From positions 128,001 through 192,000 of the forward strand of contig JBHLOY010000002.1 in the NCBI GenBank assembly GCA_048939995.1: a stretch of DNA of 64,000 nt, in the 5' to 3' direction. Position numbers and translations under genes: made by a program. This DNA is from Promethearchaeota archaeon. GTDB taxonomy: Archaea > Asgardarchaeota > Lokiarchaeia > Sigyniarchaeales > SOKP01. Below, piece after piece: positions 12,774 through 14,080 of the stretch (position 1 is the first letter of the stretch; each line of letters begins with the position of its first letter). The notes below the pieces were generated by a model that made no database searches, had not been told where the DNA came from, and worked only from the letters and a program-made list of their open reading frames with translations.

Positions 12774-14021
12774 TTATGATATAATGAGTGGAGGCCCCTT
12801 TACTCTCCAGATTGCCATATTAAATAATTGATCTCGTTCTGTGTCAGGATCAGGAATTTCTTCTGATGGGTTCCTATTTTCAAATAATTCTTTGATCCTT
12901 CCTTTATCAATAGCTAATGATAATAGAATAGGTTTATTATGTAATTCCCTAAAAGCATAGAAATAGTACTCGATAGTGTCAAACGCATTGAATGTTTGCA
13001 TCCCATTTCCTAATTCAATCTCTATGATTTCATTATATTCAGGTTCTTCCTCAATTTCTTCCATAAGGGCCCCAATCTTGAGCATAACCTCTTTAAGTAA
13101 TTCCGCTGATTTTACTAGAGAGACAAATCCAGGAACTCGGAATCTCTCAAAAATTTTCCGTTCCACTTGTTTATGAATTGTACTCATACGAATATTCAAT
13201 TTTCTGCAGATTTCACTAACAGAAATTAGTTTATCAGGCAAACATAGAGCGGATATGGAGGTCACTACCCCCGCAATGACATTATCCTTCGTATTTTTGA
13301 TCATTTCCCAGAGCTTATCCAAAATTTTCTTTGATTGGTAATAGAAATACATACCTAATTCAAAATGTTCGGAAATTTCTAAAACTTTCTGGCATACATA
13401 TTCCATTCGATTCCTTTCTTTATATTTCGGTTTAAAATCGCATATTTGAAGCTTAAACGACTGGAAGTCCTTTTTTTCAATATTAGAGACTCCTAAAAGA
13501 GCTTGTTCATCGATAGGTTTACAGTCAAATTTATAGGTAAAATAGATTACTAAGGGAATTAGCTTCTCTGGGCTTCGATACTTGGTACCATGCACAATTT
13601 TCGAACGAATCTGAACGAAATTGCTAAATACTTTCTTCTTATCAGATTCAGGAAGAGAAAGTACCTCAAAAATTCGATTTATCTCTATCATAGCTCTTGT
13701 TTTCACATTTTCTTCATTTGATTTTATAGAATCAAGTCTGTTCAATCGATTTAATCGGTAGGATTGAGGATTTTGCATTCGCTCTTTTGTTGACCCTATC
13801 TGAGTTTTCCCTAATGGGGCATACTGTATAATATCTTGATTATATGGGATATGATATTCTAAAATCTGTAAATCAAGCATGATTCCACACTCTTTACAGA
13901 CATAACCCGACTCATTTTGGGTAACGTTTTCTGAACCACATATATCACACTGCAATGATGTGTATGTAGCTTTTTGATTAAATTGAGATTTATTTAAACT
14001 TGCCAATTTACTCACGATCAC
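12774..14021 (-). CDS. tfb: Divergent transcription factor B (TFB/TFIIB) paralogue with C-terminal extension
   Basis: N-terminal CDICGS...YVCKECG Zn ribbon; LGKTQIG B-reader remnant; two cyclin-like repeats; about 95-aa extra tail ending KGPP. Confidence 0.75.
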   Translation of the reverse strand: MIVSKLASLNKSQFNQKATYTSLQCDICGSENVTQNESGYVCKECGIMLDLQILEYHIPYNQDIIQYAPLGKTQIGSTKERMQNPQSYRLNRLNRLDSIKSNEENVKTRAMIEINRIFEVLSLPESDKKKVFSNFVQIRSKIVHGTKYRSPEKLIPLVIYFTYKFDCKPIDEQALLGVSNIEKKDFQSFKLQICDFKPKYKERNRMEYVCQKVLEISEHFELGMYFYYQSKKILDKLWEMIKNTKDNVIAGVVTSISALCLPDKLISVSEICRKLNIRMSTIHKQVERKIFERFRVPGFVSLVKSAELLKEVMLKIGALMEEIEEEPEYNEIIEIELGNGMQTFNAFDTIEYYFYAFRELHNKPILLSLAIDKGRIKELFENRNPSEEIPDPDTERDQLFNMAIWRVKGPPLIIS

Positions 14022-14062
14022 AAATTTTCATTTATTACTAAAGAACAGAAGATGAGGAGTGT

Positions 14063-14080
14063 TATTTAAAAATGTTACGG
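14063..14080 (-). promoter_or_regulatory. Canonical BRE-TATA promoter of the TFB paralogue (CCGTAACA-TTTTTAAATA)
   Basis: Purine-containing BRE directly upstream of the TATA box, about 50 nt before the start. Confidence 0.55.

Follow-up and report, generated by a model that had tools for sequence, protein, structure and literature searches.

The window analysed here, a 64,000-nucleotide stretch of a Promethearchaeota genome, carries a gene for an unusual paralogue of transcription factor B (TFB), termed TFB-X below, and raises the question of whether an archaeal TFB can be dedicated to a private class of promoters. The sequence-only reading had proposed a TFB with a rewritten BRE-recognition helix, itself expressed from a canonical promoter and acting on the T-tract promoters of its neighbours. 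The first part of this proposal is confirmed: the ORF at 12774-14021 (minus strand) encodes a full-length, very divergent TFB, with a Zn ribbon, two cyclin folds and profile homology to TFIIB/TFB. TTG at 14006 is its likelier start: in relatives, the stretch containing the upstream GTG is kept as GTGAT, a Shine-Dalgarno-like motif just 5' of the start codon. The TFB-X family profile matches human TFIIB (E 2e-11) and Pyrococcus woesei TFB (E 5e-7), and an hhalign comparison with a resident TFB gives 92%. The AF2 model has a pLDDT of 85-94 across the core and is confident at residues 100-320. Foldseek aligns it to P. woesei TFB in its TBP/DNA complex (1d3u_B; rmsd 3.8, TM(target) 0.76), and VIA to 1ais_B (Z 15.2, rmsd 3.2, 188 residues aligned), i.e., in the TBP/DNA-bound arrangement. 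The cyclin folds, on which the earlier proposal depended, are thus present in the model; they are missed by single-sequence Pfam and PDB searches and require profiles and folds to be detected. TFB-X is not a canonical (housekeeping) TFB: it has no PF00382 match, scores 22.9 bits against PRK00423 (cut-off 384), and has neither the TEVT-x-R helix nor the canonical B-reader. Judged by alignment, its TBP-binding surface appears to be retained in part. Residues Y160, K164 and K183 of repeat 1, conserved at 94-99% across the family, correspond to human TFIIB residues that we take to be TBP contacts. In repeat 2, NTKD stands in place of the loop (G-[RK]-[SDG]-P) by which canonical TFBs touch TBP.

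A rapid ML tree, with long branches, sets the TFB-X family apart from the canonical Loki TFBs (SH-aLRT 98-99). The host genome (3.75 Mb, 98% complete) encodes seven canonical TFBs and one canonical TBP. Next to the canonical TFB at C11:497526 lies an unusual fusion of 427 amino acids (G000:C11:492607-493890, plus strand), in which a single TBP-like repeat is flanked by two Lrp/AsnC-type regulator modules. Two weak matches of the TFB-X profile in another genome (G078) proved to be Lrp-type regulators and were discarded.

The helix-turn-helix of the second cyclin fold is intact (helices 268-275 and 279-292), and its segment 268-290 is the aligned counterpart of the TEVT-x-R helix that the host's seven canonical TFBs share. 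At the positions equivalent to V280 and R283 of P. woesei TFB, which together with Q268 are presumably BRE contacts, TFB-X and its relatives have S/H, S/Q or S/Y. Residues C272, M279, S280, T281 and Q285 are invariant across 113 TFB-X homologues; the last four, being fixed, show the helix to be selected for some other property. The rewritten recognition helix is therefore real and conserved, and it belongs to the domain, the second cyclin fold, by which TFBs read the BRE (PMC7289017). The B-reader had been called degenerate. A canonical form (EWRAF / RRAY type) indeed cannot be made out, yet across the family the region shows a conservation of its own (column mean of 0.67), so that "rewritten" is the better word. 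Initiation is still possible with a divergent B-reader, as in P. furiosus TFB2 (PMC13502027). The C-terminal extension of about 95 residues, described as acidic and β-structured, has the expected length, a β-sheet and the KGPP motif, which is followed by four residues at the end; its acidity (21 D/E versus 9 K/R in the window) is modest across the family, with a median net charge of -4, and only the terminal PP is fixed (99% conserved). This domain is modelled with a pLDDT of 79, and fold searches with it yield at best a Z of 4.0 to unrelated sheets and atlas TM values up to 0.56 over short stretches. Some TFB-X copies do without it, and it might be a regulatory or partner-binding module.

Table 1. 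Features of the window discussed in the text, by position; counts refer to orthologues or loci in relatives.
Feature	Position	Strand	Remarks
T-tract promoter, 358-aa gene	350-363	+	
Back-to-back T-tract promoters	5750-5798		membrane operon on -, helicase side on +
Remnant of island Hel308-like helicase	6148-7042	+	two pieces
Four more T-tract promoters	7186-8279		7186+, 7618+, 8199-, 8266+
192-aa island protein	9689-10267	-	weak winged-helix resemblance; candidate rival regulator
T-tract promoter, 192-aa gene	10290-10303	-	43/48 orthologues
Prenyltransferase-like alpha/alpha toroid protein	10356-12680	-	follows TFB-X in 57 loci
T-tract promoter, toroid gene	12734-12750	-	A at -1 variant; 42/57 orthologues; may double as TFB-X terminator
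TFB-X gene	12774-14021	-	415 aa from GTG; likelier start TTG 14006, giving 410 aa
C-terminal extra domain (residues 321-415)	12777-13061	-	small β-sheet ending KGPP; no clear structural match
Cyclin repeat 2 (residues 205-292)	13146-13409	-	fold matches
Helix-turn-helix (residues 268-290)	13152-13220	-	S280/H283 at P. woesei TFB V280/R283 positions
Cyclin repeat 1 (residues 106-198)	13428-13706	-	Y160, K164, K183 align to human TFIIB Y165, R169, K188
Zn ribbon	13887-13949	-	C25/C28/C42/C45 invariant; PF08271 E 4e-4, below cut-off
TFB-X promoter	14056-14080	-	canonical-type BRE (purine -6, A -3), TATA, conserved ACTCC downstream; mRNA probably leadered
Palindrome between divergent TFB-X and M50 promoters	14178-14195		candidate operator
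T-tract-C + TATA promoter, M50 protease	14224-14237	+	35 nt 5' of start; 49/54 orthologues
M50-like protease, 114-aa membrane protein, RadB-like ATPase	14259-15985	+	divergent from TFB-X in ~50 loci
T-tract promoter, 126-aa Zn-finger gene	16184-16197	+	33/37 orthologues
126-aa Zn-finger island protein	16220-16600	+	
T-tract promoter, 247-aa HEAT-like gene	18222-18235	-	island edge

The genes around TFB-X share leaderless promoters in which an element, TTTT-Y-C, stands directly 5' of the TATA box. In a set of 116 promoters, chosen only by a TATA box ~29 nt 5' of an in-frame start in order to avoid circularity, T is found at -6 to -3 in 97-100%, a pyrimidine at -2 and C at -1 in 86-98%. The same TATA selection applied to non-island genes of the host genome finds the element in 2 of 271, which places the island element where leaderless promoters have their BRE. 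The window has 12 loose matches, all within its first 18.3 kb and far beyond chance, in agreement with the earlier description of the neighbours' promoters as non-canonical T-tracts. In relatives, the element lies 35-36 nt before the start in most orthologues of the M50, 192-aa and Zn-finger genes, and further upstream in those of the toroid gene (Table 1), while operon-internal island genes have it in 0-3 of ~50. Off the island, 7 of 10 strict matches in TFB-X genomes precede a gene, relocated Zn-finger genes among them. When loose motif matches are counted over whole genomes without regard to genes, the counts fail to tell genomes with TFB-X from those without. The canonical BRE is weakly visible genome-wide in the host, and the tRNA upstream regions are too few to define a housekeeping BRE.

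TFB-X homologues come from the Loki-type group (Promethearchaeia), to which the host accordingly belongs. Matches are strong in 71 of the 91 genomes of the host's family and weaker in the sister family; in other Asgard classes, profile scores only reach the level of canonical TFBs. The neighbourhood is an accessory island of recombination enzymes (a second RadA, RadB-like, Hef-like, Hel308-like and FEN1-like) and membrane proteins, mostly in one order: on one side of TFB-X the M50 protease, a small membrane protein, the RadB-like protein, the Zn-finger protein and the second RadA, and on the other the toroid protein, the 192-aa protein and the Hef-like and Hel308-like helicases. The expected linkage of TFB-X to this island holds in 70 of 80 loci, and such chromosomal neighbours are not the virion or replication genes amid which a viral TFB would be found. 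The other ten have no island gene on their contig stretch, and some displaced copies have element-bearing neighbours. The window's own island is eroded: it has lost the Hef-like gene and the second RadA, and its Hel308 is fragmented. The RadB-like ORF (15377-15985, plus strand), at 202 residues, is shorter than in relatives (~236) and terminates in a run of lysines derived from an A-tract, a probable frameshift or assembly error. A 720-aa island gene taken at one point for VirB4-like is instead a Hef/FANCM-like helicase paralogue, and a 1250-aa island gene has no informative Pfam match.

Across the 91 genomes, which as kin are not independent, TFB-X and the large island gene occur together in 62, TFB-X alone in 9, the large gene alone in 11 and neither in 9; the joint absence indicates that the system is dispensable. 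Several of the 11 genomes (of 73 with the large gene) in which no intact TFB-X match is found reflect contig breaks or ends. In G266 (99% complete, 110 contigs), TFB-X is gone from between the M50 and toroid genes, with no match elsewhere, and six island promoters nevertheless keep the element. The rearranged island of this genome (L222, G266:C31) also lacks the 192-aa and Hef-like genes in the stretch examined, and position -1 is A in its M50 and toroid promoters and still C in the six others. In other Asgard classes (L181-L192; G305, G078, G087, G329, G180, G238), the recombination core forms long operons of Hel308, RadA, RadB, FEN1 and, divided into two parts in several cases, a relative of the large island gene; no TFB-X match is found near it in the 8-60 kb examined.

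The promoter of TFB-X itself is of another type. It lies at 14080-14063, as proposed, and has a purine at -6 and A at -3, unlike the promoters of its neighbours. In register, the tfb-X promoters have a purine at -6 in 98% and A at -3 in 100% (44 anchored of 79 loci), and none of 78 upstream regions carries the T-tract element. The canonical own promoter is thus a property of the host's family; it does not extend to the MK-D1-clade genes, which lack A at -3, nor to short copies placed behind a T-tract. These 309-aa copies (G009/G004; L142:427-1356, minus strand, and L143:8858-9787, plus strand) have no C-terminal domain, a variant helix and a T-tract promoter with A at -1, possibly an autoregulated second tier. 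In most anchored tfb-X promoters, ACTCC occurs 11-16 nt past the TATA start (14056-14062, minus strand, in the window), others having ACTGG; it is possibly a regulator site or a downstream element. A palindrome similar to that of the window, TGACA-N5-TGTCA, is found upstream of ~10 of 76 TFB-X orthologues, and this palindrome and the M50 protease are leads, and leads only, to the trigger of the system. A sigma-70 promoter scan was set aside as irrelevant to archaeal promoters. Further copies occur: some genomes have at least three near-intact ones, several off-island (L057, L061, L065 and L051, L056, L059). G313 has a second, very divergent TFB-X-like gene, off-island, with a PP-motif end and His at 283 (L160:9043-10272, minus strand). 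In G312, three more divergent TFB-like genes within 4 kb, possibly a mobile element, branch between canonical TFBs and TFB-X (L159, G312:C21).

A second pairing of helix and element is found in the clade of the cultured Promethearchaeum syntrophicum MK-D1 (G038), the sister clade of the TFB-X with T-type promoters. Its homologue, DSAG12_02155, lies in the same island (~1.729-1.776 Mb), with Hel308, RadB, RadA, a FEN1-like gene, the toroid and M50 genes, the large gene and Hef, and its helix reads ASTVY instead of the MSTIH of the window's TFB-X. At -3 the MK-D1 island promoters carry G, and at -1 T (YTYG-N-T before WTTA); the T-type never occurs among them. Tyr at position 283 marks nearly the whole clade, in which YTYG stands at -6 to -3 in 21 of 42 island promoters, with no T-type and no canonical element among the 42; in non-island control promoters, the counts are 1 of 23 for YTYG and 8 of 23 for canonical. 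When the MK-D1-derived pattern is searched in G313 (6,035,313 bases), presumably the cultured Lokiarchaeum ossiferum, 6 of its 45 genome-wide matches cluster at 5.616-5.640 Mb (6 of 45 in 33 kb, p ~2e-7, for a stretch chosen after the fact). This stretch is the island. TFB-X (ASTVY) lies 1.2 Mb off, at 4.425 Mb, so that the motif alone located the island in spite of the distance of the gene. The G-type element also occurs in three more genomes of MK-D1's genus and in three other genomes. G312, which belongs to the same family but which the tree places outside the MK-D1 clade, combines a third helix with three promoters of the T-type. Position -3 (A, T or G) thus goes with residue 283 (Arg, His-Gln or Tyr), H and Q both accompanying the same T-type element; on the tree this is one change and not a set of independent replicates. 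Helix and element hence differ together between Loki-type lineages, cultured species included, by what is essentially one evolutionary change. An MK-D1 RNA run has a flat contig depth over the whole stretch and is probably DNA. The MK-D1 and G313 islands both include, under a G-type element, the gene of a small Arf/Ras-like GTPase next to that of a 180-aa partner (L124:6576-7719, minus strand, in MK-D1; L162:12667-13822, minus strand, in G313).

Taken together, sequence comparison and the structural model suggest that TFB-X is probably an alternative basal transcription factor dedicated to the accessory island, in the manner of a sigma factor. It would bind TBP on the island TATA boxes, read with its helix a pyrimidine element for which canonical TFBs would have little affinity, and recruit RNA polymerase through its Zn ribbon; its production would then switch on the island. 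A first tier may exist in the host's family, with a canonical TFB transcribing tfb-X under some regulator. The canonical-type tfb-X promoter fits this scheme in that family, and not in the MK-D1 clade or in the short copies. Several observations weigh against the sigma-like reading: any other island-encoded factor would covary with the element equally, the element-bearing island of G266 has no TFB-X match, one TFB-X locus in eight (10 of 80) has no island gene, the repeat-2 TBP loop is replaced, the recombination core of other Asgard classes has no TFB-X match in the 8-60 kb examined, and two different residues at position 283, H and Q, accompany one and the same T-type element.

The alternative that survives best, though unlikely, is a co-activator of the TFB3 kind: the 192-aa winged-helix-like, the Zn-finger or an Orc1/Cdc6-type protein would bind the element, and TFB-X would help to recruit the polymerase together with a canonical TFB. 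It has a precedent in Sulfolobus, where Orc1-2 binds ANTTTC and TFB3 acts with TFB1 (PMC6061795, PMC6101594). The 192-aa gene is present in 48 loci as well as in the G313 island, and element-bearing islands without a TFB-X match exist. However, the element abuts the TATA box at a fixed spacing, the seat of a TFB, whereas ANTTTC stands at a variable distance (-23 to -55 from the ATG); the candidate regulators themselves sit behind the element; TFB-X keeps both cyclin folds and the invariant helix, which a TFB3-like factor would not need; and in G266 the 192-aa gene is missing as well from the stretch examined. A still less likely alternative makes TFB-X a passenger with another role: the element would be read by a canonical TFB, one of the seven, or the T-tract would act through DNA shape or chromatin. 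The number of canonical TFBs, the weak genome-wide visibility of the canonical BRE and the persistence of the element in G266 would agree with it. But the TEVT-x-R helix is kept in all seven, as in the canonical TFBs of MK-D1 and G313, so that nothing in them explains a T versus a G element; a fixed C at -1 or G at -3 is not expected of a shape signal; and of the 8 strict matches in island-less genomes, 6 are not followed by a gene. It is improbable, finally, that TFB-X is a repressor which occupies the island promoters or titrates TBP or polymerase until proteolysis, for example by the M50 protease, frees the island: the rewritten B-reader, the extra C-terminal domain, the conserved divergent M50 gene (54 loci) and an own promoter suited to constitutive synthesis would be in line with this, but the Zn ribbon cysteines are invariant and the linker conserved, no factor would be left to read promoters without a purine-rich BRE, and TFB-X has no membrane segment, whereas M50 proteases cut membrane-embedded substrates.

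If TFB-X reads such an element in place of the BRE, as the sigma-like reading has it, archaea would offer no clearer example of a TFIIB specialised for a class of promoters, as achieved in eukaryotes via Brf1/Brf2 and TAF1B. The element would also mark out, in Asgard archaea, a set of co-regulated genes for spare recombination enzymes and membrane proteins, and so bear on DNA exchange and recombination. A bolder version, possible although we would not bet on it, is a true alternative-sigma-like TFIIB system in the closest cultured relatives of eukaryotes, with a co-diverged helix/element code (Arg/A-3, His-Gln/T-3, Tyr/G-3) that switches on a second recombination toolkit together with membrane machinery, perhaps as a programme of DNA exchange or of a sexual type; the three pairs would then be a natural recognition code for TFB/TFIIB-BRE contacts. 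The sigma-like claim can be tested in the laboratory, since MK-D1 and probably L. ossiferum carry the second helix/element pair.

In the open-access literature, no paper on the TFB-X family was found, nor any TFB paralogue that swaps the BRE for an element of opposite character via a rewritten helix. Compared with canonical archaeal TFB (P. woesei; PDB IDs 1d3u and 1ais), TFB-X shares the Zn ribbon, the linker, two cyclin folds of DNA-bound type, the C-terminal helix-turn-helix and the repeat-1 residues; it differs by S/H in place of V280/R283, the rewritten B-reader, the 95-aa extra domain, its linkage to an island and its dispensability. The analogy with Sulfolobales TFB3, drawn at the outset, holds in part. 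In the TFB3/Orc1-2/Ups/Ced system, too, a TFB paralogue is tied to DNA-handling and membrane genes and a pyrimidine-rich motif marks the regulon. TFB3 is induced by DNA damage and controls DNA-exchange genes. However, it is a truncated TFB, of which a Zn ribbon and a coiled coil are left, and its partners are TFB1 and Orc1-2, the latter binding ANTTTC at variable distance (PMC6101594, PMC6061795), whereas TFB-X has the full two-repeat core, is encoded among its presumed targets, and has a motif that replaces the BRE. Promoter selectivity via TFB paralogues is a theme shared with S. acidocaldarius TFB2, P. furiosus TFB2 and the haloarchaeal TFB/TBP sets (PMC7289017). In the cell-cycle regulon of S. 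acidocaldarius TFB2, the BRE "appeared similar" and the spacing different (bioRxiv 10.64898/2026.09.06.749720), while the BRE of the TFB-X island is inverted in character, from purine to pyrimidine, and the helix is rewritten. Brf1 and Brf2, the Pol III factors, likewise combine a TFIIB core with a C-terminal extension and serve a separate promoter class, as presumed for TFB-X. Both are among its fold matches, its core matching Brf and TFIIB alike, but its extension shows no recognisable sequence or fold link to theirs, and archaea have one polymerase. With bacterial alternative sigma factors, such as the competence sigma or the ECF factors with a site-2 protease, TFB-X shares only the logic, that of a replaceable initiation factor with a private element, a co-located regulon and a neighbouring M50 protease, embodied here in a protein of an unrelated family.
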